Virus genome (UHGV): UHGV-1456322
Reading direction: 5' to 3' (one strand)
Length of the DNA stretch: 43,927 nucleotides
Source of the DNA: a virus
The number at the start of each line of letters is the position of its first letter. Positions within the stretch are counted from its first letter, which is position 1. Of this stretch, positions 1 to 36,800 are shown piece after piece. The notes below the pieces were generated by a model. That model searched no databases. It saw nothing but the letters and a program-made list of their open reading frames with translations, and was not told where the DNA came from. The position numbers and the translations under genes are program-made.

Positions 1-57
1 TAAGGTGAAAATGAAAACAAAAATCATAAGAATGCACGAAGGCACCAGGGGCGCGTA

Positions 58-390
58 TTACTGTTTGTTAACAGGCTCGAACACGTTACACTCAACAGTT
101 CTAGCTGCTGCGTTAAACGTAAAACCCCGAAGACCCATAACATCCACCAGATATCGGCACAAATCAAACACGTGCTTAGGTTCCCGGGTGTGGGTGCCGC
201 TTACTACGTACTGCTCAACCCTAACAGGTACAGCCTGCTTTAACATGGCCTCTGAGATGATGCGCAGAGCATTGGCTGTACTGTCCCCAGTGCAGCGTTT
301 GTGCCACACCCCTGTGCCGTACTCTACACCACCTTGGGTTATGGCCTCCATGCGGGTCATACCGGTTATAATGTTACGGATATCTTTCAT
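58..390 (-). CDS. hypothetical protein (~110 aa) downstream of capsid gene
   Basis: Minus ORF in track (58..405, TTG start); in-frame ATG at 388-390 preceded by GAGGAAA RBS; no catalytic motif recognised. Confidence 0.45.
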   Translation of the reverse strand: MKDIRNIITGMTRMEAITQGGVEYGTGVWHKRCTGDSTANALRIISEAMLKQAVPVRVEQYVVSGTHTREPKHVFDLCRYLVDVMGLRGFTFNAAARTVECNVFEPVNKQ

Positions 391-439
391 AGGTTTCCTC
401 ATCAAACGGAACTAGGCAGGTTCAATTGCCGTTAACTGT

Positions 440-622
440 TTACTCTTCCGCAGTATCAGCGGCTGCGTCAGCCGCCTTACGGGTTTTCTTGGTAGCCTTG
501 CGGCCAGATTCAACCGAAGCCACCTGGATGTTCTTCGCTACATCGGTGGCGGCCTTAACCGCCTCCCGCTGAGCTGCATTGGCCCGGAGAGTCTCCAGAC
601 CGAACGTAGCGATTACTGCCAT
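440..622 (-). CDS. hypothetical small protein (60 aa)
   Basis: Minus ORF with GGAGG RBS 6 nt upstream of ATG; follows capsid gene stop by 11 nt. Confidence 0.45.
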   Translation of the reverse strand: MAVIATFGLETLRANAAQREAVKAATDVAKNIQVASVESGRKATKKTRKAADAAADTAEE

Positions 623-633
623 TGAACCTCCAA

Positions 634-1653: not shown

Positions 1654-1678
1654 GCTTTAGTTTCCTTTATAAATAAAA

Positions 1679-2521
1679 TTAAAGACCTACGCGCTTACCA
1701 GCTTCACGGCGTGCGAGCAAATCGTTATAACGTTGACTGAACTGTGGAGACGCCAAGCTACGGTTGCCCGCTTCCTGACGGAGTTTGGTATATTCTGCGC
1801 GGAATTCCGCAGCAGACAGTGCATTGTTGCTGGCCACGCCTCGTACCATTGGGTTCTGTGTCTTGATAAGACCCATATCCCGGCAGAAGCTTGCTACCAA
1901 CTCAGCGGCCTGCTTGAGCTCACCCGAGTTAGCGAGTACACGAGCTGCGTTACGCAGAGGTTCAGGGGCCTTGGAATTAAACAGCTGCGCTGCTACCTCC
2001 CAGTTCTCCTTACCGCCCACGATATCGTAAGCTTCTTGTACTGCTTTGGTGGCTTGACCAACCTGGTCTTCCAGGTACGCTTTAGCCAGCAACTCTGCAT
2101 AAGCAGCGTGCTCTCCGAAACGTTCCTTAATGAAGGCCGTATCGATTAGGTTAGGGTCCTGATACTCCAGGGCCTTACCAAGTGCCCGCACCATATCAGA
2201 GTCAGTTAACCCAGAGACTTTCTGCAACATAGCTACACCGGCATCAATCGTCGGGTTGCCTGTCTTAGCCAGCTCCTGGGGCTGCTCTTTAGCGCTATCG
2301 CCACCCTTATCCGGGGCCGCTTTTAGGGCTTCGATATCCAGAGGAATCTTAGCAGGGTCAGGGGAGTCTTTGCCCTGTTGCTGCTGGGTAGGGGTCTGTG
2401 CATCCTGCACGCCTTGATTGTTCGGGGCGCTAAGGGGAGCACCTAGGCCCGGAATCTTAGGGCCACCTTGGTTCTCTACCTGTGTAGTTTCTACGTTCTG
2501 ACCGTTTTCTACGTTATCCAT
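1679..2521 (-). CDS. capsid assembly scaffolding protein (T7 gp9-like)
   Basis: 280 aa acidic, Q/A-rich protein between portal and capsid genes; synteny. Confidence 0.7.
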   Translation of the reverse strand: MDNVENGQNVETTQVENQGGPKIPGLGAPLSAPNNQGVQDAQTPTQQQQGKDSPDPAKIPLDIEALKAAPDKGGDSAKEQPQELAKTGNPTIDAGVAMLQKVSGLTDSDMVRALGKALEYQDPNLIDTAFIKERFGEHAAYAELLAKAYLEDQVGQATKAVQEAYDIVGGKENWEVAAQLFNSKAPEPLRNAARVLANSGELKQAAELVASFCRDMGLIKTQNPMVRGVASNNALSAAEFRAEYTKLRQEAGNRSLASPQFSQRYNDLLARREAGKRVGL

Positions 2522-2535
2522 CTATGCCTCTGTTG

Positions 2536-4131
2536 TTAACTTGGTAATAAGCCCAGCTGCTTACCTGCTACTGTCGGGTCTGCTGCTGTCAAGCCCTGGA
2601 GTTGGTCCTGCGCCACACCCGCGGATACATCGGCAGACGCATCCTGAACCCGTTGCTTCTGCTGCAGCTGCTCTTCGGTGTACATGAACGGCTCGCTGAC
2701 GATGCCGTAGGCGTCGAAGTACCAATCTACGCACGCATCTTTGTTGAAGCGCGGAGTAATCTGCTCAAGCACCGGGATAGCCAGCTGCATGGATTGTGCC
2801 GCCTCTAACAGCTTGTCCGCCGCCGCGGCTTTAGCCAGTGCAGAAGTACCCACCGTAACGTTGATGTTCACTACACCTTCGCTGAGATAAAGCTTAAAGC
2901 GAGGATACACCAGTGCAGTATACAGGTACGCCAGCTTACGCAGCCAGGTGTCGCTCAGGATACTGAACCCACCGCCCATAGCGGCTTCCGCCTCTTTGGC
3001 ATTCTGGCGAATCTCGTAAGCCGTGACACGCTCACCTTGCCGTGAGTTACCGGTGTACATAAACGCACGAGACAGTTTCTGTTCGAGCATCTGAATGTTG
3101 CTGGCAATCCACTGAATCTTCTGGGCAGAGCCGCCCTCGTAAGCAGTGACTGGGGACTTGTTGTTCCCGTTGGAACCACCACCACCCACCTGCACAGCCT
3201 CGCCCGTCTCCGACGTTGCGAATTCGTCCACGTCCAGCCCGGAGCTTGCGTCAACCAGCGGAATTAACCGCGCAGACTCAACTTCGTAGTTAGTTAACGC
3301 TTCTGACAGCACTGATAATCTAGCGAAGTCCCCGGCGTAGTCCTCTACCAAGCCGCGTCCGTAGTGCTCACCGCTAACAAGGTTCCACACCAGCACGTTG
3401 TATGGAAGCTCCAGCTCAGGATAGGTGCTGCTGTCCCCAATGTGGTGTCCGTCTGCTTCTTGGTACACCTCGTAGCTTACTACCTCTACGCCTTCCTCTG
3501 TCCGCTTAACCTTGCGACAAGCGGCAGTGTAGATATCAACGTCGCCGTATGGGTCTTTGTCACGGTAGAAGGTGTTCTGGAAACTCTCTGGCAGGTCCTG
3601 GACGCTTGCGCGCTCTCTGATAATGAGTCGCAGGACGTTCCCGCTGCCATCCCTTCGAACGGTAAAGTTACGGACTGAGTAGACGATGGATTTACCTGTC
3701 CGCTCATCAATATACTCCAACGCGTTACCTGTAACCAGCAGCAGCTTCACAGCTTGCAACTTCGCAGCATAACCGTCTTTCTCAAATACTTTCTGTGACG
3801 CTGTGTTCTCGACCTCGGCCAGCTTAGATTCTGCTGTAGCTGCACTACCCAGCGAACTAATGAACTCGTCCAGGTCCGAACTCTTGGAGAACCGGAAGAA
3901 GCTAGCGCCTTGCGGGAACAGTGCGCCTACAATCTTAGTGGCTGCAGTGTTGACCAGCTGCGCTCCGGTGCTCTGGTAGTCACGCTCTAGCGGTCTGCGT
4001 CTACCGTCCAGGGAATCGTCCCGGGTAAAGATAGTGCTGAGTGTCCACTGCGCGAACTTCTCAGAGGCATCCAAGACGCCCGCGTCCTGGTCCTTCTTAA
4101 AGAGTTCTGCTAATGTTGCTTTTTGTTCCAA
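2536..4131 (-). CDS. portal (head-tail connector) protein (T7 gp8-like)
   Basis: 531 aa; contains GERVTAYEIR-type segment recalled from T7 gp8 (GERVTAEEIR); position upstream of scaffold/capsid. Confidence 0.8.
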   Translation of the reverse strand: MEQKATLAELFKKDQDAGVLDASEKFAQWTLSTIFTRDDSLDGRRRPLERDYQSTGAQLVNTAATKIVGALFPQGASFFRFSKSSDLDEFISSLGSAATAESKLAEVENTASQKVFEKDGYAAKLQAVKLLLVTGNALEYIDERTGKSIVYSVRNFTVRRDGSGNVLRLIIRERASVQDLPESFQNTFYRDKDPYGDVDIYTAACRKVKRTEEGVEVVSYEVYQEADGHHIGDSSTYPELELPYNVLVWNLVSGEHYGRGLVEDYAGDFARLSVLSEALTNYEVESARLIPLVDASSGLDVDEFATSETGEAVQVGGGGSNGNNKSPVTAYEGGSAQKIQWIASNIQMLEQKLSRAFMYTGNSRQGERVTAYEIRQNAKEAEAAMGGGFSILSDTWLRKLAYLYTALVYPRFKLYLSEGVVNINVTVGTSALAKAAAADKLLEAAQSMQLAIPVLEQITPRFNKDACVDWYFDAYGIVSEPFMYTEEQLQQKQRVQDASADVSAGVAQDQLQGLTAADPTVAGKQLGLLPS

Positions 4132-4140
4132 GCTACCCCC

Positions 4141-4404
4141 TTACAGGCCCAGAGGATTGCTCTGCCCTGCTTGTCGCCGTTTCTTCTGCTCAGACGTAAT
4201 TGCATCTGCAGATGCAGAGGCAGCCCCTGCAGGGTCAATCTCAGCAATATTATCTGCGGCGCTATTAGCCTCTAAGGCAGCCTGTTGTTTAGCTGCGCTG
4301 GCCTGTTGCTCTGCCAAGCGCTGCTGCGCCTCTAATCCTGCGTTGTCAGTAAGGCCCAGCATATCCGTGGCCTTGCCTAACAGTCTACCTAAACCACCAC
4401 TCAT
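4141..4404 (-). CDS. hypothetical protein (87 aa), Ala/Gln-rich
   Basis: Minus ORF between RNAP-proximal gene and portal; overlaps upstream gene by 4 nt. Confidence 0.45.
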   Translation of the reverse strand: MSGGLGRLLGKATDMLGLTDNAGLEAQQRLAEQQASAAKQQAALEANSAADNIAEIDPAGAASASADAITSEQKKRRQAGQSNPLGL

Positions 4405-4841
4405 TCTGACCTCACTAAATGATAAGTTGTTTTGTACGTGTTACTGGACGTGCTTCGGCTAATGGTGATACGCCCAGCGCGCATGCACTTGGCTATTGCG
4501 TGCAGGCCCTGCATAATCACAGACACTGCCGCGCCGTTGTCCGGTTTCAATACGAAGAAGTCTGTATACAGCACAGGCTCTACGTAATGACAGTCCTCTA
4601 CAGCCTCTGGGTAGTAGCTGACAGCACCGACTAAGTCGCCTTTGGAGTCATAGACTCCTAGTATATACTGTTTACCCAGTATACTTCCCAACACCCTCCA
4701 GTAGTGCTGCTCTGGAGCCAGGCCCCGACTAATGCCATGGCCCAGTTCGTGCAGTTGCTTCACTGCGTCTGTAACGTCGTCAGATTTATACAGAACCTTG
4801 AGAGTGTAGTCGGAAGTTTTACTAGTGTGTTTTAACTTCAT
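4401..4841 (-). CDS. hypothetical protein (146 aa)
   Basis: Minus ORF; ATG immediately preceded by AGGAGTAGGA that is part of the repeated promoter-like motif. Confidence 0.5.
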   Translation of the reverse strand: MKLKHTSKTSDYTLKVLYKSDDVTDAVKQLHELGHGISRGLAPEQHYWRVLGSILGKQYILGVYDSKGDLVGAVSYYPEAVEDCHYVEPVLYTDFFVLKPDNGAAVSVIMQGLHAIAKCMRAGRITISRSTSSNTYKTTYHLVRSE

Positions 4842-4860
4842 TCCTACTCCTGTAACATTA
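4840..4860 (-). promoter_or_regulatory. candidate phage RNAP promoter (minus-strand TAATGTTACAGGAGTAGGA)
   Basis: Exact 16-mer CCTACTCCTGTAACAT (plus strand) shared with 26339-26354 and 36777-36792; located just downstream of RNAP gene. Confidence 0.45.
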
Positions 4861-4865
4861 AATTT

Positions 4866-7334
4866 TTAGCAGAAGAAGAACGGGGATTCTAGCACTTGCC
4901 GGATGTCCAAAGTGCCCACCTCTGGCATGTCCAGGTCCGTCAAGTCTGCCCCGGCTGCTGCCGCTGCCCGAGTAATATCGCCAAGCAGGTCATTCTCTTC
5001 ATATAGACGCACAAACTGCTCACGGATGTGCCTATGCATAGTGTCGACGTCAGCTGCGTGAGTAGCCAGCGAGTCGTGAATAGGCACAATGTCCAACCCC
5101 TCCGCAGCGCAGAGCACCATCATCAAGTGCGTACTGTCCAGGCTATGCACAAAGTTTGGGGCAATCCCGGAGGCTGCCTTGCGCTTGTTACAAGTTTTGA
5201 AGTCCCGGTTGTGTACCAGTACCGCTGACAGGTTCATGCAGTCAATACGTACACGCACTTCTTCACGCTGCGTGTAACGGTTCATTACGAGCCCGCCCAG
5301 CGGCGTATACCACTGCAGGTGCTGGCTTGCCGGTACGCGTCTAGCGAGATTCTGCAAGTACCCCATAACTGCCGCAGCAGCGGGGTTTGCCTCCTCTATA
5401 GCGGCGCGCATACGCGGTGCCAGGTAGCACGACAGGTTCCACAGACTGTTAGTATCGGTACCCTCGTATCCCTCAGCGCAAGCGCCTTCAAAGATGTAGT
5501 CGCTGCAGCTACGCACCGTGGCGCTGTAGAAGTAGGTCATACTTGGGTGCTTGGTCATGCTGCGGGTGATTTCGTTCTCTCTCCAGTACGTGCTCTGGAT
5601 AACGAAATCCTCCTTGTCCAGGTCCAGTATCACCTTCTCATCCGTGCGGCGCTTCACGTCCATGTACAGGTCCGCTTTCTTGTCGTTACCTTCCCAGTAC
5701 AGGTTCGTCAGACGACCGCCTACAGGGTCTCTCAGGAGCGCTGAGAGGTGCTGTCCACCTGAGTTTGTGGCGTCCATAGCAACCGGAGTTCTGGAGATGT
5801 ACTCTTCTGGGCACGGAGAATCCAGAGCAGCCACCAGGTCGAGCACTGCTGCCAAGAAACACCACGGTGAATCGGCCTGCTTAAAAGCGTCCGAATCAAA
5901 TGGATTCTCTGCAACTGAGCGGACAACTGCCATATTTTTATCCACCCAATCTGCGCGGTCTTCGAATAGGGTTTTGTCATAACCAAAGCAAGTGGCGACA
6001 TGCACTTTAAGCCAGAACAACCCTCTCTCTCCAAGAGGTTTACCTCTACCGAATTCCAGCAGAGCCTTCTGCAAATCAGAACCCTGCGGGTGCAACGAGG
6101 ACTTGAAGTACAGGCGGTAGCGCCAGTCCACACAAGTCGGGAAGTACAGGGCTTTCTCATCTTTGAATTCCTCTGCCATCTCCAACGTAGTCAGAAGGCT
6201 GCGTAGTTGCGACACACGCTTACGGTCAGCACTGTACCACAGGGACATACGCGTCTTCCACTCACCGAAGCGGTCCAGTTCTTCTTCGGTGTAGTTCTCT
6301 TTTGGTACACCATCCAAGTACCACTCAGGCTTCGGCTCCGGTATTGAGCGGGGCATACCTATCCCAATACCCAGGGCCCGTGCTTCTTGCACCAGTTCCA
6401 GTATGCGCTTATTAATACGGTATGGGGTTTCCTGTGCCTTATTAAGCGCCTTCTTGATGCCATCCGCGGACTTAAATGCTTCCGCCACTTCACGCAGCCT
6501 GGAGCGGTCGATGTGCGAGTTATGGTACGTACCGCGGTTGTCGATAGGAGTAAGGTACCCACCATCCCACATAGTGGTGTGCTGCACCGGGGGGACCAGC
6601 ATAGGCGGCTTCATCGTTACAGTGTCGGCAGATTCCACCAGTTTCTGGAAGGCCCCCATAACGTCATCAGCCGGGTAGAGCATGCTCAGGTTCCCGCTAC
6701 CTGTCTTCCACTGGAACAAGCCAGTCTCAAACACCGCGGCACACAGCAGACGCCCTACGGAGATGTTCTGGGCATTGGTCCAAGGCTCGTGCCCATAGTG
6801 CACATTCTCGGCACTGGCACGGAGCGTACGCAGGATGTGCGTAGGGGACTTCGTACGGCGCTCTGTGAGATACTCATATACTCGGTCCATGTACGCTGGG
6901 GCTACGTTGCGTAACTGCAGAGCCAGTAGCTCTGACTGCACGTTCCGGCCCAGTGCGGACATTACCGCCTGCGCAGTCTGGCGGCGACTAGCAGACTCGC
7001 CGGGGGCGACGCTAAACGCTTCAAACATTGTGCACAGGCTCAGTGTGGTCAGGACATCCAAGGGGACTAAGCGCAGGAACCGGCGGTACTTACCACCAAT
7101 GCCCGGGACTTTGACGTTTCGCATCTCGTCGATAGCGGCAGCAGCCACCTCATATGCCGAGGTGAGCATACGCTGCGTCATCGGCAGGTTCATAATCCCG
7201 CCGTTCTGCAATGCGTCCGTAATCAGCTTACGTGCCCGCTCGATTCCGCGAATCTTATAGGTCTCTTCGAGCTCCAGCTGGCGTTTCACCAGTGCTTCCT
7301 CTGGTACTACAACCGTATTCAGGGCGCTAATCAT
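4866..7334 (-). CDS. DNA-directed RNA polymerase, single-subunit T7-like
   Basis: 822 aa; palm motifs DATNSGGQH (motif A-like) and PIHDSL (motif C HDS); size typical of T7/phiKMV RNAPs. Confidence 0.95.
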   Translation of the reverse strand: MISALNTVVVPEEALVKRQLELEETYKIRGIERARKLITDALQNGGIMNLPMTQRMLTSAYEVAAAAIDEMRNVKVPGIGGKYRRFLRLVPLDVLTTLSLCTMFEAFSVAPGESASRRQTAQAVMSALGRNVQSELLALQLRNVAPAYMDRVYEYLTERRTKSPTHILRTLRASAENVHYGHEPWTNAQNISVGRLLCAAVFETGLFQWKTGSGNLSMLYPADDVMGAFQKLVESADTVTMKPPMLVPPVQHTTMWDGGYLTPIDNRGTYHNSHIDRSRLREVAEAFKSADGIKKALNKAQETPYRINKRILELVQEARALGIGIGMPRSIPEPKPEWYLDGVPKENYTEEELDRFGEWKTRMSLWYSADRKRVSQLRSLLTTLEMAEEFKDEKALYFPTCVDWRYRLYFKSSLHPQGSDLQKALLEFGRGKPLGERGLFWLKVHVATCFGYDKTLFEDRADWVDKNMAVVRSVAENPFDSDAFKQADSPWCFLAAVLDLVAALDSPCPEEYISRTPVAMDATNSGGQHLSALLRDPVGGRLTNLYWEGNDKKADLYMDVKRRTDEKVILDLDKEDFVIQSTYWRENEITRSMTKHPSMTYFYSATVRSCSDYIFEGACAEGYEGTDTNSLWNLSCYLAPRMRAAIEEANPAAAAVMGYLQNLARRVPASQHLQWYTPLGGLVMNRYTQREEVRVRIDCMNLSAVLVHNRDFKTCNKRKAASGIAPNFVHSLDSTHLMMVLCAAEGLDIVPIHDSLATHAADVDTMHRHIREQFVRLYEENDLLGDITRAAAAAGADLTDLDMPEVGTLDIRQVLESPFFFC

Positions 7335-22314: not shown

Positions 22315-22659
22315 TCAGCGTGCGTACCATGCAGCGATCTGCGCTTGCTTATAATATGCCCGTACTGCCGCCCTAAATCTTGTATATGCTCCACGATACC
22401 CGTACCGTAGCAGTGCTGCAACCACATCGAACTGAATGTGCTCTTGCAACTGCCGCGCGGCAGATTCTGTATACTCGCGATAGGTTGTGAGCACCACCGT
22501 AGAGTCCTGCCTACGAACACGGAGGAGTCTGCGCTCGACCGGTATGATTTGCTTGAGTTCATTAGGAACCTCTTTGAATGTTCCCCAAGGGCACCCGCAC
22601 TTGCCCTGCGTTTCCAGCAGCTTCCACATGAAAACAGCAGCTTCATCTACCGTCATCAT
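22315..22659 (-). CDS. hypothetical protein (114 aa)
   Basis: Start overlaps stop of HNH-AP2 gene; N-terminus MMTVDEAA resembles that of the upstream endonuclease. Confidence 0.5.
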   Translation of the reverse strand: MMTVDEAAVFMWKLLETQGKCGCPWGTFKEVPNELKQIIPVERRLLRVRRQDSTVVLTTYREYTESAARQLQEHIQFDVVAALLRYGYRGAYTRFRAAVRAYYKQAQIAAWYAR

Positions 22660-23144
22660 GTGAGCCTCCCAGTAGGAGTGGTTGGGTGCAGCCTAGCTTT
22701 AGCCGCTAAGTATGCTTCGCGGGCTTCATTTTCTGTGGGGTACACCCCAAGATACATCTGCTTCCCGTTTGCTGCTATGCGGGCCATGTATCCTCCTCGA
22801 AATGGGTAATACCCCTTCGCCTCTCGGTTGTGGTTATTGATTAGGGCAGTGGTCGCGCGGAGGTTTTCAGGACGATTATCATCCCGCTGCCCGTTGATAT
22901 GGTCAACTACTGGTGGAAAGTACCCGTTGGTAAGGGCGAAAACCACCCTATGAGCTTTTAAGTCCCGGCCCCGAAGCATTCCGTGGTAGTAGCCCCCGTT
23001 ACTCTTGCTTGTGAACGCTTCCGCTCCAACCGGTGTGCGTGCTCTAGGTGCTTTCTTCCAACGCAAACCAGTGGTCGAGGTGGCGTCGACGTAGAGATAT
23101 TCCTGAATCAAGCACAGCAGCGCTGTTTCGTCTACTGTGAGCAT
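22656..23144 (-). CDS. HNH homing endonuclease with AP2-type DNA-binding domain
   Basis: 162 aa; VVDHINGQRDDNRPENLR (HNH_3-like) followed by YLGVYPTENEAREAY (AP2-like); AAGGA RBS. Confidence 0.8.
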   Translation of the reverse strand: MLTVDETALLCLIQEYLYVDATSTTGLRWKKAPRARTPVGAEAFTSKSNGGYYHGMLRGRDLKAHRVVFALTNGYFPPVVDHINGQRDDNRPENLRATTALINNHNREAKGYYPFRGGYMARIAANGKQMYLGVYPTENEAREAYLAAKARLHPTTPTGRLT

Positions 23145-23341
23145 ACGCTGTCCTTGAATACCACGTTGCGGGCCAGCAGGGACGACTTGGGACTGGACAC
23201 CAGATCCCCCACCTTTAGCGCAGACTTAACCCACACATTGCTATGGGGAGCAAAGAGTTCCGCCCGAGTATGGAACATGTCGTGTATCGCCACTCGGTAG
23301 AACAGCCCGTTCGGGCGCTTGTACACGTCATACTTAATCAT
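23132..23341 (-). CDS. hypothetical protein (69 aa)
   Basis: AAGGGG RBS; early region. Confidence 0.4.
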   Translation of the reverse strand: MIKYDVYKRPNGLFYRVAIHDMFHTRAELFAPHSNVWVKSALKVGDLVSSPKSSLLARNVVFKDSVCSQ

Positions 23342-23517
23342 ACTACACCCCTTACATTAAACCGTAAGCAGTAACCGCGCAGAGTCATACCCAGGCGCTT
23401 TGCTTGTTTCTCATAGTGCTGGCGCAGTGCTGCCTTCGCGTTGTACTCCCGCGCCAGCCCTTCGATTGTTGGTTGCTGCCTACGCATTAGCAGCGTCTCA
23501 GGATTCTTTCCGTGCAT
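23338..23517 (-). CDS. hypothetical protein (~59 aa)
   Basis: Track ORF begins at TTG; first ATG at 23515-23517 has GAGG RBS. Confidence 0.4.
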   Translation of the reverse strand: MHGKNPETLLMRRQQPTIEGLAREYNAKAALRQHYEKQAKRLGMTLRGYCLRFNVRGVV

Positions 23518-23525
23518 GCCCAACC

Positions 23526-23789
23526 TCAAATATCGCTGTTGCTCTTACTGTCCACCGTAAGCGTAACGGCGGCGTCCGGGTACTGCTCCTGCACCGCGGC
23601 AAGAATACGCGCGCCTAGCTCTTTGCAGCCGCCCTCGGGGTCTTCAAAGAGGTCATACTCAGGGCGCGGCTGCGGTTCCTGCGTTGCGGGTTGCTGCAAC
23701 TGCACTGTGCAGTATGGGATTGGGTTGTTTACGTCGTTGCCCAGCACCAGCATAGCGCTGGTCACAATGATGTTGAATACATTAACCAT
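23526..23789 (-). CDS. hypothetical protein (~88 aa), hydrophobic N-terminus and acidic C-terminus
   Basis: Track ORF 23526..23975 trimmed to ATG with GGAGA RBS; upstream part is low-complexity and overlaps another gene. Confidence 0.4.
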   Translation of the reverse strand: MVNVFNIIVTSAMLVLGNDVNNPIPYCTVQLQQPATQEPQPRPEYDLFEDPEGGCKELGARILAAVQEQYPDAAVTLTVDSKSNSDI

Positions 23790-24003
23790 ATAGTTGTCTC
23801 CAATCGGCGATGATGCCAAGATTAACGGCGTCCAGCACAGTGCGGGCAGCCATTTCGGTGTAGGTATCCACAAATTCGAATGGGGATTCCTGATTGGTGT
23901 CTTTGTCAGAGAATATAACCACAGTGTAGTTGTATTCGTCGTACTTGCGATTGCACCACACGGGCCAGGGTTCATGACCCGGATAAACCAGTATTGCTTT
24001 CAT
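23782..24003 (-). CDS. hypothetical protein (~73 aa), acidic
   Basis: GAGGTGG RBS before second in-frame ATG; preceded by conserved hairpin element. Confidence 0.45.
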   Translation of the reverse strand: MKAILVYPGHEPWPVWCNRKYDEYNYTVVIFSDKDTNQESPFEFVDTYTEMAARTVLDAVNLGIIADWRQLYG

Positions 24004-24027
24004 ATGCCACCTCATACGCCAGTTGCA

Positions 24028-24059
24028 TTCACATAGCGTCCCGTAGGACGCTATAGGCT
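24028..24059 (-). promoter_or_regulatory. conserved 32-bp element with 9-bp inverted repeat (copy A)
   Basis: TTCACATAGCGTCCCGTAGGACGCTATAGGCT; 28/32 identical to copy B; stem ATAGCGTCC / GGACGCTAT. Confidence 0.4.
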
Positions 24060-24192
24060 TGCCACTAGAGATACTCGCCCAATCCCTCGTACACCCATTT
24101 TTGAGCTATTGCCCGCACAGGGATATCGAAAGCGTCGGCATCGTTGGCCGCAGGGCACAAGGCCCACCACTTGATAACCGGAACTTTATAAA

Positions 24193-24777
24193 TCATGCCG
24201 CTGCCTTCAAAGTTGCGTCCAGTACAGCGCGTACGTCCACGCCTTGCGATACCAGCATAGACACGAGGTCAGCATCGCTTACGCCAGTCTCTTTAGCCTT
24301 CTTAATAGCGTTTTTAACGCGCCCCAGCGCTTGCAGGCGCACTGCATCGGCATCCAGTGCGTCATTCTTCACCTGCTCTGCTTCGGCGGCGTACAGGGCC
24401 ATACAGGAGCTATAAAACCTCGCTACGATTACTTCGCGGCCTTGCTTGTCAGCTTGTTTGTAGTCCAGACGCATAGTGTCCAGTTCGATACCCAGCTTTT
24501 CAGCCGACACATAGCACTTCTTAGCGTTGAACCCATATTTGCCGGACTCCTTGTTGAGCTTGATAGGCAACAGCGTACGCAGCACCATATCGAAGTCAGC
24601 GGCATCGCTACGCTGCATATCCGTAGCCCATGATACGTTGCTGCTAATCAGGCCGTGGAAGAGCGCGCTGATAGTGATGTTACGCTTTGCTTCCACTACG
24701 TCGCCCAGCGCTTTACGAATGCTGCCAGCAGCGGTGAGCTTGAATACTTTACCTGTTGAATTGGTGGAATTAGTCAT
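24193..24777 (-). CDS. hypothetical early protein (~194 aa)
   Basis: Track ORF 24193..24828 trimmed to ATG with AAAGGGGTG RBS; preceded by conserved hairpin element copy B. Confidence 0.5.
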   Translation of the reverse strand: MTNSTNSTGKVFKLTAAGSIRKALGDVVEAKRNITISALFHGLISSNVSWATDMQRSDAADFDMVLRTLLPIKLNKESGKYGFNAKKCYVSAEKLGIELDTMRLDYKQADKQGREVIVARFYSSCMALYAAEAEQVKNDALDADAVRLQALGRVKNAIKKAKETGVSDADLVSMLVSQGVDVRAVLDATLKAAA

Positions 24778-24815
24778 AATGCACCCCTTTGATTGGTTGT
24801 TTACTTTACGAATTA

Positions 24816-24847
24816 CTTCACATAGCACCCCATAGGATGCTATAGGC
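24816..24847 (-). promoter_or_regulatory. conserved 32-bp element with 9-bp inverted repeat (copy B)
   Basis: TTCACATAGCACCCCATAGGATGCTATAGGCT; hairpin with one G-U pair when transcribed from the minus strand. Confidence 0.4.
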
Positions 24848-24852
24848 TGTAA

Positions 24853-25050
24853 TTAGTGTCCGAACTGTGCATTCATAGTAGACCACCCCGAAGGTTGTTT
24901 ACTGCCAGCACGTTGCTTTTGCTTACCTCTCACCCTGTGCTCACAGCTCAGGCCTTGTTTACTTGGCTTCACAGTGAGTGGCACGTTGTCGGTGGGATTC
25001 AGTGATAACTGCATATTCCGCCGTAAAGCTAAACGCTTTGCTTTGCGCAT
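24853..25050 (-). CDS. hypothetical basic early protein (65 aa)
   Basis: First RBS-supported ORF (GAGAGG) downstream of the sigma70 early promoters. Confidence 0.4.
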   Translation of the reverse strand: MRKAKRLALRRNMQLSLNPTDNVPLTVKPSKQGLSCEHRVRGKQKQRAGSKQPSGWSTMNAQFGH

Positions 25051-25299
25051 AATCTTCTTACCTCTCAGAGAACATAATCTAGCGCAGCCTTGTTACTGCT
25101 ACGCTATGTTATATGCTCTTTGCGGGATACACTCCGCGCCTTGTTCCCTCGATTCAGAGGAGCGAGCTGCTCTCGCCTCGACAGTGTGGTTTGTCTCAGA
25201 ACCCCGGTGATAACGTCCGGCACGCTTACTACTATCATGTATCTAGGGTTAGTGGTCAGAGCACCTTTAGGCGCTACACTGCTCCGCAACATGGTTCAA

Positions 25300-25328
25300 A
25301 CTATAAAAGCGTTTACTGCTATTGTCAA
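25300..25328 (-). promoter_or_regulatory. sigma70-type early promoter (TTGACA - 17 bp - TATAGT)
   Basis: Minus strand: -35 TTGACA (25323-25328), 17-bp spacer, -10 TATAGT (25300-25305); AT-rich upstream region. Confidence 0.55.
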
Positions 25329-25424
25329 TACCTGTTTTTCATATGACTTATCAGGCTGTCTACTTATCCAGTTGACTCTGGAATCTAGAGCTACCCGGTA
25401 GACCGTATCGCTTTCGATGGGATA

Positions 25425-25453
25425 AATATACACCTAGCAGATTTAAAAAAGCA
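25425..25453 (-). promoter_or_regulatory. possible second sigma70 promoter (TTGCTT - 17 bp - TATATT)
   Basis: Minus strand -35 TTGCTT, 17-bp spacer, -10 TATATT; weaker match. Confidence 0.3.
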
Positions 25454-25466
25454 AGCACTTTTTATA

Positions 25467-25509
25467 AAAAAAAAAAAGGTAATACAGCATTTATAGTACT
25501 GTATTACCT
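25467..25509 (-). terminator. rho-independent terminator (10-bp stem, 11-nt loop, T12 tract)
   Basis: Minus strand GGTAATACAG-(loop)-CTGTATTACC followed by 12 T; directly downstream of the 25515-26069 gene. Confidence 0.7.
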
Positions 25510-25514
25510 CAAGT

Positions 25515-26069
25515 TTATGCCTTTAGCCACCCCAACGGCTCCGTGAATAGCAGCCTGTTACACTTATGTGTATTAAGCGTTGCGGGTATCACCTGAATGT
25601 TCCCCGCACAGTGTAAGCCGCACACCTCTTTAGCCTTTAGCGGTAGCATATGGTCAATATGCCACGCTATGCCAGTACACTCCGCCCTCTCGGCTGCTAA
25701 AGCGATAGCCTCCAACATAACAAACTCACCCCACTCGCCATACCATGAGGGTACGGATTGAGTACGCGCAGCACGGTATCGCGCATTGTGGCGAACCTTA
25801 CGCTGTAATTGCTCCTCTGTCATAATGTGCTTAGGTCGGCGTGTCTTACGGTACTCTCTCAAGGCCTCTGCCTTACGTACCTGATAAACCTTATGGTACC
25901 CCCGCATACGCTCCTTAGTAGCTGGGCTGGTACTCCTAATCTTAAAGCACTCGGAGCACTCCCCTGAACTGGTGAGGCGCTTTGCCGTGTGCTGGTACTT
26001 ACAGTGCTTCCCTGTGTAGTAGTATGTACTACCAGTGGCTTTAGCCGTAGCCCGACTAGATGGTAACAT
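25515..26069 (-). CDS. HNH / endonuclease VII-like nuclease (~184 aa)
   Basis: Track ORF 25515..26138 trimmed to ATG with AAGGAG RBS; CSEC zinc motif plus HIDHMLPL ... GLHCAGN ... N His-Me finger pattern. Confidence 0.55.
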   Translation of the reverse strand: MLPSSRATAKATGSTYYYTGKHCKYQHTAKRLTSSGECSECFKIRSTSPATKERMRGYHKVYQVRKAEALREYRKTRRPKHIMTEEQLQRKVRHNARYRAARTQSVPSWYGEWGEFVMLEAIALAAERAECTGIAWHIDHMLPLKAKEVCGLHCAGNIQVIPATLNTHKCNRLLFTEPLGWLKA

Positions 26070-26074
26070 GTATA

Positions 26075-26945
26075 ACTCCTTATATATTATAGGGATAGCC
26101 ACTAGGGATAGCACTGTGCTGACACTGGCTGTAGCCAATACTAGCCACGTCTAGCCAATACTATCTAATACTACATAAAGCAGAACGTAGTGACGTAACG
26201 TAAGTGAAGGAACGTAGTGATGCGGTGACTATGTAGTTATGGCAGCCTACTACGTAGGCACAGGGCCATACTAGTGAGTGCCTAGTAGGGACTAGTAAGG
26301 ACTAGTATTAAGTAGTGTATATAGTGCCCTAAAACCCTCCTACTCCTGTAACATCATTTCATAATAGCTTTCGAATGAAAGTAAGAGCAAAGGGATAGCG
26401 CTGGATAGTGCGGTGTGGTGGATGTGCGCCCTAGTGGGGAGCGCGCAGCGTAGCACATAATTAGCACAATGTAAAGCACTAAGGATAGCCAGTGGATAGC
26501 CTAGTGCACACTCGGGATAGCACCAGGCATACCCTATGGCCCCACTGCGCGGGCACTAGACAGGCACTAGGCAGACCCACTGAGGCGCACAAAATAAGCA
26601 AGGCAGAGCACGCCCCTATGGCCCACAGAGAGCGCACAGAGAGCGCACAGGAAGCGCCCTAGTGAACGCACAGTGATAGCCATAGGGTAGCACTGGCAAT
26701 AGCCTTAGAGCGCAGCACAGGCCCGCTGAGGCGCTCTAGTGCGCACTAGCAGGCCCCACCAGTGCCCCCCCCCCTAAATTGACGCTAGGCACCCCCCTAT
26801 GGGGGCAATTGGGCGCGTTGAGGGTGAGGGAGGGGCTCGCGTGAGTCTAATAAATTTCAGGTCCAGGTATAGACGCGCACCCCAGCAGCACCCCAGCAGT
26901 GCCCCGGGATACCGTAGAGATACCCCAGGGAAGCTCTAGAGCTAC
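26075..26945. repeat. non-coding repeat-rich region, candidate genome terminus / terminal-repeat region
   Basis: About 870 bp without ORFs; many distinct 2-copy tandem short repeats (AGGGATAGCCACT, TAGCCAATACTA, ACGTAGTGA, GGACTAGTA, GGATAGCC x3, CACAGAGAGCG, CACCCCAGCAG), C10 tract, GC palindromes. Confidence 0.5.
26337..26357 (-). promoter_or_regulatory. candidate phage RNAP promoter copy (GATGTTACAGGAGTAGGAGG)
   Basis: Exact 16-mer shared with 4843-4858 and 36777-36792. Confidence 0.4.
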
Positions 26946-28901
26946 TTAGAGATACACCTCCCAGGCTACCTGGGATACGTCCGCTGCGTTACTGCTCCTA
27001 ATCACGAAGCTGTTTAGGTCCGGATTAGGTGTAGGCACATCCTGGTTCTGAGCTACGCCAGTAACCGTCAAGGCCCCAGCACTAGAGGGAAAGGTCAACC
27101 GCGTCAACTTAACCTCAGACACCCACTTGAAGGAGTTAGCTACGCTGCCAAAGTTTCCGCGTACACGGGCGTTGACTGTAGCCTCACCAGCCACCAGGGT
27201 TGCCACTCCACGGATACCCGTGTCATCCAGTAAGTTCATGGACATGCGCGGGGGCGTAGGTTGAACGGCGTAGCCGCTCAGCAATGCCCAGAACAAGCCG
27301 TGACCGGTCATGTCGTTATTGGACATAGATACCAGGGTAGGGTCAATGCCCATAGTCCCGTGGAAGTACACAGCTCTCCCGGTACCGTCGTAGCGCATGC
27401 TCACGCCATCAATCTCCAGGGATGTCTGCGCTGTCTCAGCTACGTCCTTAGTAACGAAGATGTGAGAGCTGGAGTTGCGGGTGTACCGACCACCCTTAAC
27501 ACGGCCCCCGTTGATTCGCACACCATTCTGGCTACCGTGAGCCTCGCAGTCATAAACGTAGCCACCGCCGTACGAGCAGTTAAAGCCAGAGCGTACGTTG
27601 TCATAAGCTAGGCACTCCCTATAGATAGGGAAGGCTACACCGGTGTTGGAGGCGAACCCGTCCATAGCTGCACGGTAAGCTCGACAGTTCAAGTACTCTA
27701 CCCCGTTAGTGCGCGCTTGGAACCCATCGTCAGCACTGTCGTACGAAACGCATCGAACGAACTTCACACGCTTACCAATGTCATGAGTATCAAACCCAGC
27801 TTGGGTTGTGTTGTAGGCTTCGCAGTTAACGCCTAAGAACTCGATAGGCTCTCCCCACTTGTCCCCGTCTGCGGTGCTCTGCCAGTTCAGAGAGATTGCG
27901 TGGCGTACGTCCATGGCGTGGATATCGTGTACTTCCGTGTCCTCTGAGCAGCCGAGCACTTCTACCCCATACCATCCGATGTTGTAGAAGTACGTACCCT
28001 TAACAGTACTATCTACGCAGTTATTGAACTTGATAGCACTACGCCCTTCTATATCAGAAGCCCCGGGGCGTTTGTTGCCAATAATAACCCCGTCCTGGAT
28101 GTGCAAGTCCGCGGCAAAGTTGGCAGAGATACCGATAGTAAAGAACCGGTTCAAATCGTCGTAGCCGAACTCGTTGATGTACGGGGATACTAAGGTTACG
28201 TTCTCCACCATTGTCGGGATACCTACTTCCGCGGCATCAGACAGGTAGTAGTTATAGTGCAGCGCTTTATCCAGCCGAATACTGGTGACGCCACCGGAGG
28301 TGCTAACCCCAACCACTTTCCTAATCTGGGAAATCTTTACACCGTACGTGTTAGGACCACCATCACACAGCTTGTTAGAGCGAAGATACAAGTACGTACC
28401 TTTTACCGCAGACAAAGCCCCGGCAGCCACCGTAATGACTTTGCTGCCCGCCGCGGCATCCGCTGCTAACGGTACGAACACCGAGGGTGCCGAGCCGATA
28501 ATATTAAGCACTTGACGTGCAACCGCAGCATCCGGTAGGATTCTTCCGGTATCGGTAAACTCTAGCGTAGAGTTGCTTTTGATGTTGAGCACACTCGTGG
28601 CCTGCAGGACCGTGTCCACAACCAGGTGCCTATTAGGTGCGCTCATGAACGTTACTATGCCCGCCCAATTGCTGAACCAGGAGCTGTATGCCGGACCCAC
28701 GAATTTACGGAGTAGATACCCACCAGGTACAGCAAACACAGTTCCGTTATCCACTACCGACGCGGCAGTAGTAAAGGTGAAGTCCCCACCGGCGCTGCCC
28801 AGCAGGCTAATCTTGTCCCGTACCTGAAAGTTTGGATATGCTACCATGCTCGCCAAGTCGGAGAATACCCGCTCTGGAGCTACTAATCTAATTAACGCCA
28901 T
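26946..28901 (-). CDS. tailspike protein, probable polysaccharide depolymerase (beta-helix)
   Basis: 651 aa; no T7 gp17-like N-terminal anchor; repetitive Gly/Asn/Val-rich segments typical of right-handed beta-helix tailspikes; last gene before genome-end region. Confidence 0.8.
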   Translation of the reverse strand: MALIRLVAPERVFSDLASMVAYPNFQVRDKISLLGSAGGDFTFTTAASVVDNGTVFAVPGGYLLRKFVGPAYSSWFSNWAGIVTFMSAPNRHLVVDTVLQATSVLNIKSNSTLEFTDTGRILPDAAVARQVLNIIGSAPSVFVPLAADAAAGSKVITVAAGALSAVKGTYLYLRSNKLCDGGPNTYGVKISQIRKVVGVSTSGGVTSIRLDKALHYNYYLSDAAEVGIPTMVENVTLVSPYINEFGYDDLNRFFTIGISANFAADLHIQDGVIIGNKRPGASDIEGRSAIKFNNCVDSTVKGTYFYNIGWYGVEVLGCSEDTEVHDIHAMDVRHAISLNWQSTADGDKWGEPIEFLGVNCEAYNTTQAGFDTHDIGKRVKFVRCVSYDSADDGFQARTNGVEYLNCRAYRAAMDGFASNTGVAFPIYRECLAYDNVRSGFNCSYGGGYVYDCEAHGSQNGVRINGGRVKGGRYTRNSSSHIFVTKDVAETAQTSLEIDGVSMRYDGTGRAVYFHGTMGIDPTLVSMSNNDMTGHGLFWALLSGYAVQPTPPRMSMNLLDDTGIRGVATLVAGEATVNARVRGNFGSVANSFKWVSEVKLTRLTFPSSAGALTVTGVAQNQDVPTPNPDLNSFVIRSSNAADVSQVAWEVYL

Positions 28902-33838: not shown

Positions 33839-36800
33839 TTAATCGTCTCCGAAGTTATTGATGATAGCTCGCGTAGGTGCGAATTCCTGGATTAACGGCA
33901 CCTGCTTAGTGAAGGTCTTGATATCCATATTACCGGTAGCCAGGTCCTGCACAGCCCCAAGTAGTCCTGTGACGTAACCCATAGATGCCAATGAGTGACG
34001 GGGAGAATCCCCCAGGAAGATATCCTGTAGTAAGGATACACCGCCAATGGCACTCATACCCATCACGGACTCACCGATGAGTTTCTGGGTGTCTACGTCC
34101 CCCCCATCCATACCGTGCTTAGCCATAGTAGCCAGTAGCATCAGCGGGAATTGATACGCCATAATATGGGCTACGCCAATCCACCCAGCGTCGTTCAGCT
34201 CCCTACGCAGAATCTTGTTAGTGGCGGCCAGTGCGAAGCTCTGGTACCCTACAATGACTTTGCCGATAGGGTTGAACTGTGCAAAGTGTGAGGTCTCTCC
34301 AGTACGAACCTGCTGTACCAGGTAGTCCATCATACGCGTCCCTACAACCTCAACTTGCATTTGCAGGTCCGGCTGGAACATGGCGCCCGGGTTGGCTTTG
34401 TTGGCAGCGACGGCACGGTCAGCAATGTCGCGGGTAAGCCCGAAACGCTCCAGACGCTTAAACGCCGCAGCATCACCCTTGAACATCTGGGTAAGCTCAT
34501 CCGCCACAATGCCGGAGTTCAGGTTAACCTGCAGCCGGTGCACCATGCTCATACCGTTGACGTGACGCGCAGCCTGCCCAACGTTCTGGGTTACATTGAA
34601 CCAAGAGGCCTGACGGGTCAGGTCCAGGTTATCGTCGGCGTACGTATTCAACCAGCGGAAGCGCATCTCCTTCTGGATATTACCTCGCAGTACAGTGTCT
34701 AGACGGGTAGCCATATCCGGAGTCTTGATAGCTACGGCACCTTCCTTGAACCAAGGCTGGTCGCGCATACTACGCAGCACTCTAGCCATACCGAACTCCT
34801 TCATAGCCAGGGCAGTGTCAGTCAGCTGATACAGGCCGGAGTTCTTAAGCATGGTGGCGTTAGCCATGTTCCCGGCTGCACGCAGCAAATCCGGAAGCTG
34901 TCCGGCGTCAGCAGGCGCCCCACCCAGGATAAAGTCGATGGTGTCATTGACTGTCTTCTCCCACTTAGCGGAATCCGCCAGTGCGTGCTTAGACTCATCA
35001 ATCATCTTAGCTAGCTGGCCCAGGCCCTGTACGCCTGCATAGGCCATGCCTACACGCCCAGACATACGGTTAGTGTACCCGTGCATAACCTTGGCTACAT
35101 CAGTATCCATCAGGTCCTGCATGCGCATGCTCTTACCGTTCACCAGATACTCTTTGTCCATGTTGAACCGAGTACGCTGACGCAGGTTCCGCGCAGGGGA
35201 CGTGCTACCGGATTCGCGTACGTTACCAGCCAGGAAACTCTGGATTGCAGATTCATCTACACCAGCGCTACGCATAGCCATAACGACCTCGTCGTTACCC
35301 ATGCCGTTAATCAGCTGCTTCCACATCGGGCCGGACTGCCCTGCACGGCCGTTGTAGATACCGTCAACCATCTCCTTTGCAACACGCTGCACTACCTCTG
35401 ACTCCATGCTCGGGTACACGTCCCGCAGGGCGGACCTGAACAGGGCGCGGTAGTCGTCCAGAGTGTTACCCTGCGCAATACCTTGGCGCATCTTGTCGTA
35501 GCTGTACTGACGCGGGAAGTAGTAATCGGATTTAACCAACGCACCATCATCCACCAGACCAGCATTGAGCATATGCTCGTGCCACTTGCCTGCCCAGCCA
35601 GAGCGGCGATAGGCGTCAACCAGTGGGGCAATCTCTACATCCGGTACGGGAACAGCTCGGCCGTTTACATCAGCACTGTAGGCAGCATCCAGGTACTTGC
35701 TCAGGCGGTCTTCCAGTGCAGCCCGCTCAGCGCGGAACTTGCTCCGATGGAAGAAGCGCTCAGAGAAACCTACACCCTTATCCTTCAACGCGCCCAGGAT
35801 AGCGTCTTCCACTACGCTAGCGCTGGCGTCCATCTCCAAAGTGAGGTTGCGCTTGAAGTCCACTACAGACGGGCGACGGCCGCCTACTGCGGACGCATCC
35901 GACACTAGCAGTTTAGCCAAGTCTTCATTGCCTTGAGCGATGTTATCGTACAGGGCAAACATAGTAGAGAGCTTCTTCTTAGCGCCATCCAGCATAGCTT
36001 GGGCACCCTTAGCCTCGTTTAGGGTAGTGCTGCCCGCCAGGTCCTGGAAGGCTTCACTACGGAAGCTCTGGGCTTGGTCTGCATAATCCTTAGCTGTCCA
36101 CTTAACGGCGTCCTCGTACGCATCCAAGACATCTTCCAAGGCAGAACCTTTGGCCTTGATGCCCAGGGCATTCATGATGTACTCGCCCAGTTGGCGGAGC
36201 ATGCTCTTACCGGTTGGGGATTTCGTCCGCGCCAGATGCTCAACCCACTCAGGGCTGTCACCTAAGCCTGCCAGCATCTCGTGCACATTACTAGCGTAAT
36301 ACCGCATACGCGGCGTCAAGGTGGAGTCCGCTGCAATAACAGCGCGCACTTCATCCAGGCGCTTAGCAATCTCTGGGTTACTGTCAACGGCGCGCGCAGT
36401 GGCGGCATGAATCAGTTCGTGCACGGCTACCCTGCTTGTGTCTGCATCCATAGCACGCAGTGCGTCCCCTGCTGTAGTCCATGTGCTGCCATTAGCTCGC
36501 GTAGGTGCGCGTAGAGACACCTCTCCACGCTTAGCTAAATCTTGCTGTGCGTAAGTGTAGCGGCTGCGGTTTGCGGAGCCTGCTACCAGTTTAAAATCAA
36601 TGTCATTTACAGCATCGCCCAGCGTGTCCAGAATAGCCTTCTGGCCTGCTGTTAAGTGTTCGGACTTCTTCAAGAACTGAACTACGTGCTGTGCTTTCAT
36701 GTTCACGGAGGCGGTATTGTTTCTAGATACTTGGATGCTTTCATCCAGTGTCTTAGTAAGGATTTCCTCTCCCTCTCCTACTCCTGTAACATTAGCGTCC

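Follow-up and report, generated by a model that had tools for sequence, protein, structure and literature searches.

A covarying RNA element between early genes of KP34-like and other enterobacterial phages, a candidate RNase III processing site

Why does a phage genome carry the same short inverted repeat twice, each time a few dozen nucleotides ahead of an early gene? We address this question for UHGV virus genome UHGV-1456322, of which 43,927 nucleotides were analyzed (hereafter, the window). An initial annotation had described a 32-bp hairpin element in two copies, and listed as candidate functions RNase III-type processing sites between early cistrons, operators for a dimeric regulator, and recognition sites for an encoded homing endonuclease. 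The repeated motif is a genuine observation. Copy 1, TTCACATAGCGTCCCGTAGGACGCTATAGGCT, lies at 24028–24059, exactly as described. Copy 2, TTCACATAGCACCCCATAGGATGCTATAGGCT, exists as well, but its coordinates had been set off by one (24816–24847 instead of 24817–24848). As had been noted, the copies are identical at 28 of 32 positions (four mismatches). The 9-bp inverted repeat ascribed to each is perfect in copy 1 but holds for only eight of nine pairs in copy 2 at the DNA level; the odd position there is an A·C mismatch on the plus strand and a G·U wobble on the minus (sense) strand. The reported spacing of 25 to 40 nt to the next gene agrees with our measurements from core end to ATG (24 nt for copy 1, ATG at 24003; 39 nt for copy 2, ATG at 24777). 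A degenerate pattern spanning both copies has exactly two sites in the window, against an expectation of 0.00 from 100 dinucleotide-preserving shuffles, and a covariance model (see below) applied to every position of the 43.9-kb window recovers only these two.

All long open reading frames (ORFs) of the window are on the minus strand, and the element is therefore read as AGCCUAUAGC....GCUAUGUGAA. The 32-bp description missed approximately 12 nt on each side. These flanks form a lower stem that is unlike in sequence between the two copies, yet is paired in both. In the sense RNA, both copies have the same layout: a lower stem of 8 to 9 bp, an internal loop (AGCC / GUGAA) with an isolated C-G pair and a C·U mismatch inside it, an upper stem of 10 bp, and a tetraloop. 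The features of the two sites are as follows.

24016–24071, minus strand: site 2, full structured RNA element, 56 nt (cmsearch 71.1 bits, E 2e-21; RNAfold −26.9 kcal/mol, z −4.0)
24067–24060 paired with 24027–24020, minus strand: site 2 lower stem, CUAGUGGCA/UGCAACUGG (RNA fold)
A24059 G24058 C C / G U G A24029 A24028, minus strand: site 2 internal loop (RNA fold)
24055–24046 paired with 24041–24032, minus strand: site 2 upper stem (RNA fold)
24045–24042, minus strand: site 2 loop, UACG (RNA fold)
24028–24059, minus strand: site 2 conserved 32-nt core (copy 1), sense strand AGCCUAUAGCGUCCUACGGGACGCUAUGUGAA
24806–24859, minus strand: site 1, full structured RNA element (cmsearch 47.8 bits, E 2e-13; RNAfold −18.7 kcal/mol, z −2.8)
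24856–24849 paired with 24816–24809, minus strand: site 1 lower stem, CUAAUUAC with GUAAUUCG (RNA fold)
Within site 1, minus strand: upper stem with a U·G wobble, and loop UAUG (RNA fold)
24817–24848, minus strand: site 1 conserved 32-nt core (copy 2)

The initial annotation also missed that the motif had been published. Eriksson 2015 (PMC4411677, Table 3) lists it as a "putative phage promoter" with the consensus AGCCTATAGCGTCCTACGGGGCGCTATGTGAA and two sites each in KP34, SU503, SU552A, NTUH-K2044-K1-1, and F19; both sites of SU503 are labelled "promoter, discovered using MEME" in GenBank KP708985. This is the same element, at the same relative positions and with two sites per genome, and the core of our site 2 differs from the consensus at one position (G to A). 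The published description, however, ends at 32 nt and covers only five Kp34-like phages, and the terms 'hairpin', 'stem-loop', and 'inverted repeat' are absent from its text. Lu 2019 (PMC6834552) found the motif to be the only repeat of more than 20 nt in the genome, and obtained no RNA in vitro when a PCR fragment with the motif was supplied to purified KP34 RNA polymerase. The actual KP34 promoters in that work are T(A/G)ATGTTACAGGAGTA and a weak ACTTTGGACATCCGTCAAGT. These are likewise short conserved motifs that share strand and genomes with the element, but they are unrelated in sequence, and the element matches neither; in the window they are found elsewhere than the hairpins, on the minus strand at 4860–4845, 26356–26341, and 36794–36779 (weak promoter, 4913–4894). 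A full-text literature search with the motif strings returned only these two phage papers. The motif is thus a known one, and its only proposed function, nicking aside, failed when tested. New here are the full RNA structure and its strand, the constant location between cistrons, the occurrence in several phage families, and the close match in architecture to T7 RNase III signals.

We find that the structure, rather than the sequence, is what the stems preserve. An IMG/VR scan with the pattern CCTATAGC-N12-GCTATGTG gave 70 loci with 100 matches, of which 93 were unique and about five of these due to chance. A MAFFT alignment of 78 unique copies had a register-breaking gap and was replaced by an ungapped subset (A2, 33 sequences) and covariance-model realignment. 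Within A2, 92% of cells pair, compared with 22 to 44% when the partners are slid, and 13 of the 20 pairs change on both sides. The covariance model built from A2 recovered 105 copies (87 distinct) from 70 sources. Among the distinct copies, 91.6% of cells are paired (21 to 43% with partners slid), with changes on both sides, that is, compensatory changes, at 15 of the 20 pairs. No shuffle in 500 matched any of the observed pairing or covariation measures. RNAalifold arrived at this structure independently and showed compensatory changes at 14 of 19 pairs.

Variation is greatest in the lower stem, which changes freely (UAAUUAC/GUAAUUA, UAGUAGCA/UGCAACUA, GGUUAAU/AUUAACC, AGUAAAUA/UAUUUACU, GUGAUG/CAUCAU). 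The inner upper stem also covaries (GUCC/GGGC, AUCC/GGGU, CUGC/GUGG, AGGU/ACCU, CUUC/GAGG). Compensatory changes occur even inside the near-invariant core, in SP6 (AGU/ACU) and in two IMG/VR loci (CCUACAGC/GCUGUGUG in L052/L053); both cases lie outside the search pattern and were recovered by the covariance model. The internal loop AGCCU / GUGAA, located 10 to 11 positions from the tetraloop, is kept on its 5' side in 77 of 87 copies and on its 3' side in 72 of 87. Its isolated C-G pair is present in 85 of the 87 distinct copies and replaced by U·G in the other two. Note that seven upper-stem pairs and the loop residues CC/GUG were preset by the search pattern, and their invariance is partly imposed. 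When the loop C-G pair was freed in a relaxed IMG/VR pattern, the matches listed were mostly an unrelated recurrent sequence in large phage contigs and chance matches, together with one true variant (L137) in which this pair is flipped to G-C. Hybrid copies without a complementary lower stem do exist in nature (L013, L046, and L055); an intact lower stem is therefore not indispensable to the phage.

The structure is strand specific. A U·G pair occupies the base of the upper stem in all 87 copies, and another stands third from the loop in 82 of 87, where both neighboring pairs are variable; site 2 of the window itself has U-A in place of the conserved U·G. Across the copies, G·U cells number 210 and A·C cells only 20, and the tetraloop is UNCG in 53 of 87. 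Antisense folds of the two sites are weaker than the sense folds (−20.7 versus −26.9 kcal/mol for site 2 and −14.7 versus −18.7 kcal/mol for site 1), owing to a pair in site 1 that reads G·U in sense but A·C in antisense. The fixed U·G pairs, the excess of G·U over A·C, and the UNCG loops all identify the sense-strand RNA as the functional form. We are highly confident that the element is a functional RNA structure of the sense strand. Rfam 15 gave no match for the whole window at gathering score, and none within 23900–25000 at E ≤ 10.

The element occupies a fixed position between cistrons. Its surroundings in the window are as follows.

25300–25328, minus strand: strong sigma-70-type early promoter, TTGACA-17-TATAGT, 11/12 (promoter scan)
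24853–25050, minus strand: early ORF, 65 aa, PHROG 32970; stop TAA at 24855–24853, within the 5' arm of the site 1 lower stem
24193–24777, minus strand: early gene downstream of site 1, 194 aa, PHROG 5277, function unknown; ATG at 24777, 28 nt past the element
24065–24196, minus strand: small early ORF, 43 aa; stop TAG at 24067–24065, within the 5' arm of the site 2 lower stem
23782–24003, minus strand: early gene downstream of site 2, 73 aa, PHROG 7657, function unknown; ATG at 24003, 12 nt past the element, with the Shine-Dalgarno sequence GAGGUGG
22656–23144: HNH genes, near the elements

The same arrangement recurs across 102 distinct contexts, in all of which the element is oriented in the direction of transcription. 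A same-strand ORF of at least 30 codons ends near the 5' end of the element in 98 of 102, and in 91 of these 98 the stop codon falls at offset 0 to 9, inside or directly beside the 5' arm of the lower stem. Downstream, an ORF on the same strand, preceded by a Shine-Dalgarno sequence, is present in 98 of 102 and starts 10 to 32 nt past the element in 93 of them. The phiEco32-like phages, and a further contig (L011) described below, have no close downstream gene. The genes downstream come from unrelated families (PHROG 5277, 7657, and 4571) with no known function, and Pfam and PHROGs searches of the flanking genes, all of unknown function, revealed no shared family that ties the element to one gene. 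Scans of 22600–27000 found no sigma-70 promoter at either site (−35/−10 hexamers, spacing of 16 to 18 nt) and called no intrinsic terminator at either, the hairpin being followed by GUGAAUGCAAC or GUGAAGUAAUU; nor did they find a terminator-like site between the sigma-70 promoter and the elements. Mosaic junctions, together with the hybrid copies mentioned above, indicate recombination at the repeats. We regard this recombination as a consequence of repetition and not as the function of the element.

The initial annotation had suggested a search of related genomes, and the element proves to be conserved among KP34-like relatives and in further phage families. Megablast identified the region as that of a KP34-like (Drulisvirus) Klebsiella podophage (390 records, e.g., KpV71 and RCIP0038). 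Sequence resembling site 2 is present in 235 phage records, mostly from Klebsiella, with some from Escherichia, Shigella, Cronobacter, and Kosakonia, and one Drulisvirus recorded on Acinetobacter. There are two sites per genome, and three in some. With a different lower and inner stem, the element also occurs in SP6/K1E/K1-5-like phages (Molineuxvirinae); in K1E it sits between genes 5 and 6, upstream of the RNA polymerase gene. It was further found in Pectobacterium PP16, Dickeya BF25/12, and Escherichia Lidtsur/usur, in phiEco32-like phages including SU7 (Gordonclarkvirinae), and in L011, a single 49.7-kb contig with a phi80/Stx-like (lambdoid-like) segment. Conversely, 185,579 bacterial and archaeal genomes (one per species) contained only eight matches, in unrelated taxa and none with the hairpin; thus, at the level of species representatives, this is not a host or prophage element.

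The carrier phage groups all have hosts in the order Enterobacterales. They share no obvious phage protein, since phiEco32-like and lambdoid phages, to our knowledge, encode no T7-type polymerase. The spread of the element over phage families with common hosts, combined with its absence from bacterial genomes, therefore points to a host factor that recognizes it.

We consider it probable, at roughly 60%, that the element is an intercistronic RNase III processing site in early mRNA, belonging to a sequence class of its own. This was one of the functions initially suggested, and it is the one that the evidence favors: a sense-strand RNA with strong covariation, about 22 quasi-continuous base pairs interrupted by an internal loop, an intercistronic location, and a shape that can be superimposed on the early RNase III sites of T7. 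A 32-bp element with a 9-bp stem, as it had been described, would be too short for RNase III; the reading becomes plausible because of the added lower stem. Under this model, host RNA polymerase would produce a polycistronic early transcript from the sigma-70 promoter at 25328–25300, to which the phage polymerase may contribute from its promoter at 26356–26341. Host RNase III would recognize the hairpin within this transcript and make a single cut near GUGA↓A, in the 3' strand of the internal loop. This would leave the upstream message (ORF1, or the 194-aa and 43-aa genes) with a 10-bp, tetraloop-capped hairpin at its end that blocks 3' exonucleases; the downstream message would be separated from it and begin 15 to 40 nt before its start codon. 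We infer the enzyme, the cut position, and the resulting stabilization of mRNA and separation of cistrons.

T7 cuts are reported to have been placed at 890, 1468, and 5887 by Dunn and Studier in 1983. These coordinates fall at UAU↓GAU in the T7 site sequences, which in R1.1 is after the thirteenth nucleotide of the 3' strand. The cut geometry of R1.1 is the basis for the two bonds predicted here.

24028..24029, minus strand: site 2, bond predicted to be cut by RNase III, GUGA↓A, in the 3' strand of the internal loop (between 24029 and 24028; analogy with T7 R1.1)
24817..24818, minus strand: site 1, bond predicted to be cut by RNase III, GUGA↓A (between 24818 and 24817; analogy with T7 R1.1)

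[quoted passage not shown] A distal box (UA, UG) adjoins the loop-closing pair and a proximal box (GC, AU/UA, AU, AU/UA) adjoins the cut, the natural R1.1 site having a U·C-type mismatch at position 4 of the latter (PMC1540722). The helix of the element adds up to about 22 positions: 10 in the upper stem, 4 in the loop including the C-G pair, and 8 to 9 in the lower stem. It agrees with these rules in its two turns, in its internal loop, and in the 11 bp that separate the tetraloop from the predicted cut. Counted from the loop, its positions compare with R1.1 as follows.

Position 1: C-G; loop-closing pair
Position 2: C-G; distal-box position 1 (U-A in R1.1)
Position 3: U·G; distal-box position 2 (U·G in R1.1)
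Position 8: U-A; proximal-box position 1 (G-C in R1.1)
Position 9: A-U in 87 of 87; proximal-box position 2 (A-U in R1.1)
Position 10: U·G; proximal-box position 3 (A-U in R1.1)
Position 11: C·U; proximal-box position 4 (C·U in R1.1)
Position 12: C-G (85 of 87; U·G in two); between the staggered cuts
Position 13: G·A; between the staggered cuts
Position 14: A·A; no R1.1 feature assigned
Position 15 onward: lower stem; lower stem of R1.1

With the register set by the predicted cut site, the optimal or R1.1 sequence is matched at only three of the six box positions. In vivo, the stretch between the staggered cuts, two positions long, usually has a G-C or C-G pair (PMC6212723), and the isolated and nearly invariant C-G of the internal loop conforms to this rule. 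Counting against RNase III are the C-G at distal-box position 1, the U-A at proximal-box position 1, and the U·G at position 3 of the proximal box, as well as the lack of sequence similarity to the T7 sites, the hybrid copies whose lower stem is not complementary, and the U-A found in site 2 of the window. Furthermore, RNase III needs little sequence, so the near-invariant CCUAUAGC/GCUAUGUG exceeds what this enzyme demands; its constancy across phage families, in part a product of the search pattern, could reflect another sequence-specific partner. We found no relevant transcriptomics or RNase III work in the literature on KP34-, SP6-, or phiEco32-type phages, and neither a transcriptome of any KP34-like phage nor cleavage data for any member of the element.

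The main alternative to cleavage by RNase III is a structured RNA that works uncut, either as a passive hairpin that stabilizes or insulates the message, or as a site to which RNase III (without cutting) or some other host RNA-binding factor attaches to tune translation of the flanking cistrons. The RNA structure, its strand, and its location between cistrons are as compatible with this reading as with cleavage, stable UNCG loops are typical of stabilizer hairpins such as the CUUCGG hairpins of T4, the internal-loop sequence is conserved beyond the known requirement of RNase III, and binding of RNase III without cleavage is documented (PMC1540722). A simple stabilizer, however, has no need of a lower stem that covaries or of an internal loop that is conserved, and the overall span, about 22 positions, together with the location of the loop, has the look of an RNase III substrate. 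We judge this reading unlikely. A further reading starts from the CCUAUAGC/GCUAUGUG module, which is common to virulent phages of at least three lineages infecting Enterobacterales. The module may be a horizontally spread, sequence-specific RNA signal for another host partner, or for RNase III binding uncut, for example as a hairpin that regulates early translation, or as a decoy, or as protection for the phage message; we hold this to be a doubtful proposition.

It is very unlikely that the element is a translational operator, that is, a hairpin bound by an early phage protein that represses or activates the downstream gene. Its distance of 10 to 32 nt from start codons would suit such a role, and hairpins with conserved loops are typical of operators. 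Yet the downstream genes differ and are sometimes absent (in the phiEco32-like phages and L011), which makes a gene-specific operator unlikely, the carrier families have no obvious common set of early proteins, and the terminal loop, the usual site of protein contact, is variable.

A function at the DNA level is highly improbable. This group of explanations includes the dimeric-regulator operator and the homing-endonuclease target of the initial annotation, the nick sites offered by Eriksson et al. (PMC4411677) as an alternative function, and a recombination 'linker' between gene modules. The element is palindromic, HNH genes lie nearby, and the hybrid copies and mosaic junctions speak of recombination at the repeats. 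However, compensatory changes keep the pairing while the sequence changes and G·U wobbles are kept on one strand only. The element is also present in phages with different gene sets, including K1E, where the 5.5-kb stretch around it contains no annotated HNH gene. Neither the dimeric regulator nor the homing endonuclease is supported. The flanks, AGCC on one side and GUGAA on the other, are asymmetric and conserved, the element invariably points in the direction of transcription, and recombination is a by-product of any repeat.

The published reading as a promoter for a KP34-type single-subunit RNA polymerase, which draws on a MEME motif upstream of early-middle genes and on its being the sole long repeat, is largely refuted and hardly credible, given the failed transcription assay (PMC6834552), the real promoters elsewhere in the window, the occurrence of the element in phiEco32-like phages and L011, and a covariation that keeps pairing and not sequence.

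This sequence is present in hundreds of Drulisvirus records and is called a promoter in at least one GenBank entry (SU503), an annotation that recognition of a structured RNA in early mRNA corrects. The element is a candidate RNA family absent from Rfam, and it comes with a concrete prediction, an rnc-dependent cut at GUGA↓A. It is also relevant to the engineering of KP34-, SP6-, and K1E-type phages for therapy, or of their early regions as expression cassettes, because deleting or relocating a hairpin could alter the stability of early mRNA. As repeats, the copies are natural points of deletion and recombination. More broadly, phage families that have common hosts and few common genes offer a case for how host RNases shape phage regulatory sequences.

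How does the element compare with known systems? We know of no match of the motif to CRISPR-repeat mimics, K-turn or sarcin-ricin motifs, or known self-cleaving ribozymes. The N4 virion-RNA polymerase promoters are DNA hairpins with stems of 5 to 7 bp and 3-nt loops, used by a specific virion polymerase. Like the element, they are short conserved inverted repeats upstream of early genes; unlike them, the element has wobbles and UNCG loops that indicate RNA, and occurs in phages without such a polymerase. The CUUCGG/UNCG hairpins of T4 and phage 7-11 are likewise intergenic and form very stable tetraloop hairpins on phage mRNA, but these are plain short stems, without a conserved internal loop or covarying lower stem.

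The closest counterparts are the early RNase III signals of T7 (R0.3, R0.5, R1, R1.1, and R1.3). The two sets share no sequence similarity: the cores are unrelated to the T7-group ..CUCAAGGUC..GGCCUUUAUGAU.., and the covariance model finds no match in T7 nt 1–7000. Internal loops are CUCA/UAUGA in T7 and AGCC/GUGAA here, and tetraloops are GNRA-like in T7 and mostly UNCG here. T7 has five early and five late RNase III sites, compared with the two per genome (three in some) of the element. Both, however, are intercistronic and on the sense strand, in T7 within a polycistronic early mRNA made by host RNA polymerase, and both are conserved in sequence within a genome and across related phages. 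In both, a lower stem leads through a 4 × 5 internal loop to an upper stem of roughly 10 bp that includes G·U pairs and is closed by a tetraloop, over about two helical turns in all. In each, the upper stem is followed by a pyrimidine·pyrimidine mismatch, one Watson-Crick pair, and then a purine·purine pair. Judged by these comparisons, the element is T7-like in architecture and not a homologue of a T7 site.

In three loci, recombination between the two copies of the hairpin element has naturally deleted the 194-aa and 43-aa genes, and the 73-aa gene directly follows the first early open reading frame (ORF). These loci carry hybrid copies of the element, in which site 1 (the copy ahead of the 194-aa gene) supplies the 5' arm and site 2 (the copy ahead of the 73-aa gene) the 3' arm; the lower stem has been lost.

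Hybrid element copies (site 1 5' arm, site 2 3' arm)
L013, 9130-9184
L046, 205-259
L055, 9957-10011

Other relatives have three copies. The extra copy lies ~90 nt downstream of site 1 and has its own lower stem, GGUUAAU/AUUAACC; in L054, it adjoins a G10 run similar to a G9 run of the window (near 26765-26775).

Relatives with three element copies
L035, 6797-6939
L054, 4502-4648
L070, 12898-13040

Among the site 2 homologues of L015, L016, L060, L067, and L083, a change in the lower stem's 3' arm goes together with a change of downstream gene, and the element therefore often lies where gene modules meet in a mosaic junction. A further variant (L137, 1093-1118) has an upper stem identical to that of site 2; its internal loop is largely closed and carries G-C in place of the isolated C-G pair. 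The relaxed search pattern also returned AACTATAGCTTCTTAAGAAATGCTATGTCG, a recurrent sequence unrelated to the element that is present in many large IMG/VR contigs (L085-L160; phage, 95-280 kb). Hairpin complementarity is absent from this sequence, which is probably coding.

Two further ORFs and a non-coding stretch lie in or near the early region.

Features in and around the early region
22656-23144, minus strand, HNH endonuclease ORF (Pfam HNH_3, E 1e-13)
25510-25476, minus strand, strong terminator-like hairpin with a T10 run, next after the 207-aa ORF
25515-26138, minus strand, 207-aa ORF with an H-x-D-H...N...H-like motif
26400-26900, minus strand, left-end non-coding region with many short repeats

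The HNH endonuclease ORF belongs to the early region, ~900 nt downstream of site 2. The 207-aa ORF, for which Pfam gave no match, is flanked by the left-end phage promoter on one side and the sigma-70 promoter on the other. Short repeats of the left-end region include CACTAG/CTAGTG and two copies of GTGCGCTCTCT; this region, which also contains the G9 run, is presumably a terminal-repeat or packaging region.

We also observed a third strong hairpin (25067-25119, minus strand) within the 5' untranslated region of the first early ORF. It pairs over 4 + 6 + 9 bp, interrupted by small internal loops, and folds at −23.6 kcal/mol (z = −5.1). The hairpin overlaps the Shine-Dalgarno sequence and ends ~15 nt ahead of the ATG at 25050. 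CAUAGCG is common to this hairpin and the element, and 12 related loci have the hairpin in nearly identical form. It may represent an additional RNase III-type site that differs in sequence from the element, with T7 R0.3 as a possible counterpart.

The window also carries promoters of the phage polymerase. All three strong copies (TAATGTTACAGGAGTA twice, TGATGTTACAGGAGTA once) exactly match experimentally defined KP34 promoters (Lu 2019, PMC6834552).

KP34 RNA polymerase promoters
4845-4860, minus strand, strong, exact copy
4894-4913, minus strand, weak, one mismatch, where the 822-aa RNA polymerase gene ends
26341-26356, minus strand, strong, exact copy
36779-36794, minus strand, strong, exact copy

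The arrangement of strong and weak promoters in the window is the same as that of KP34.
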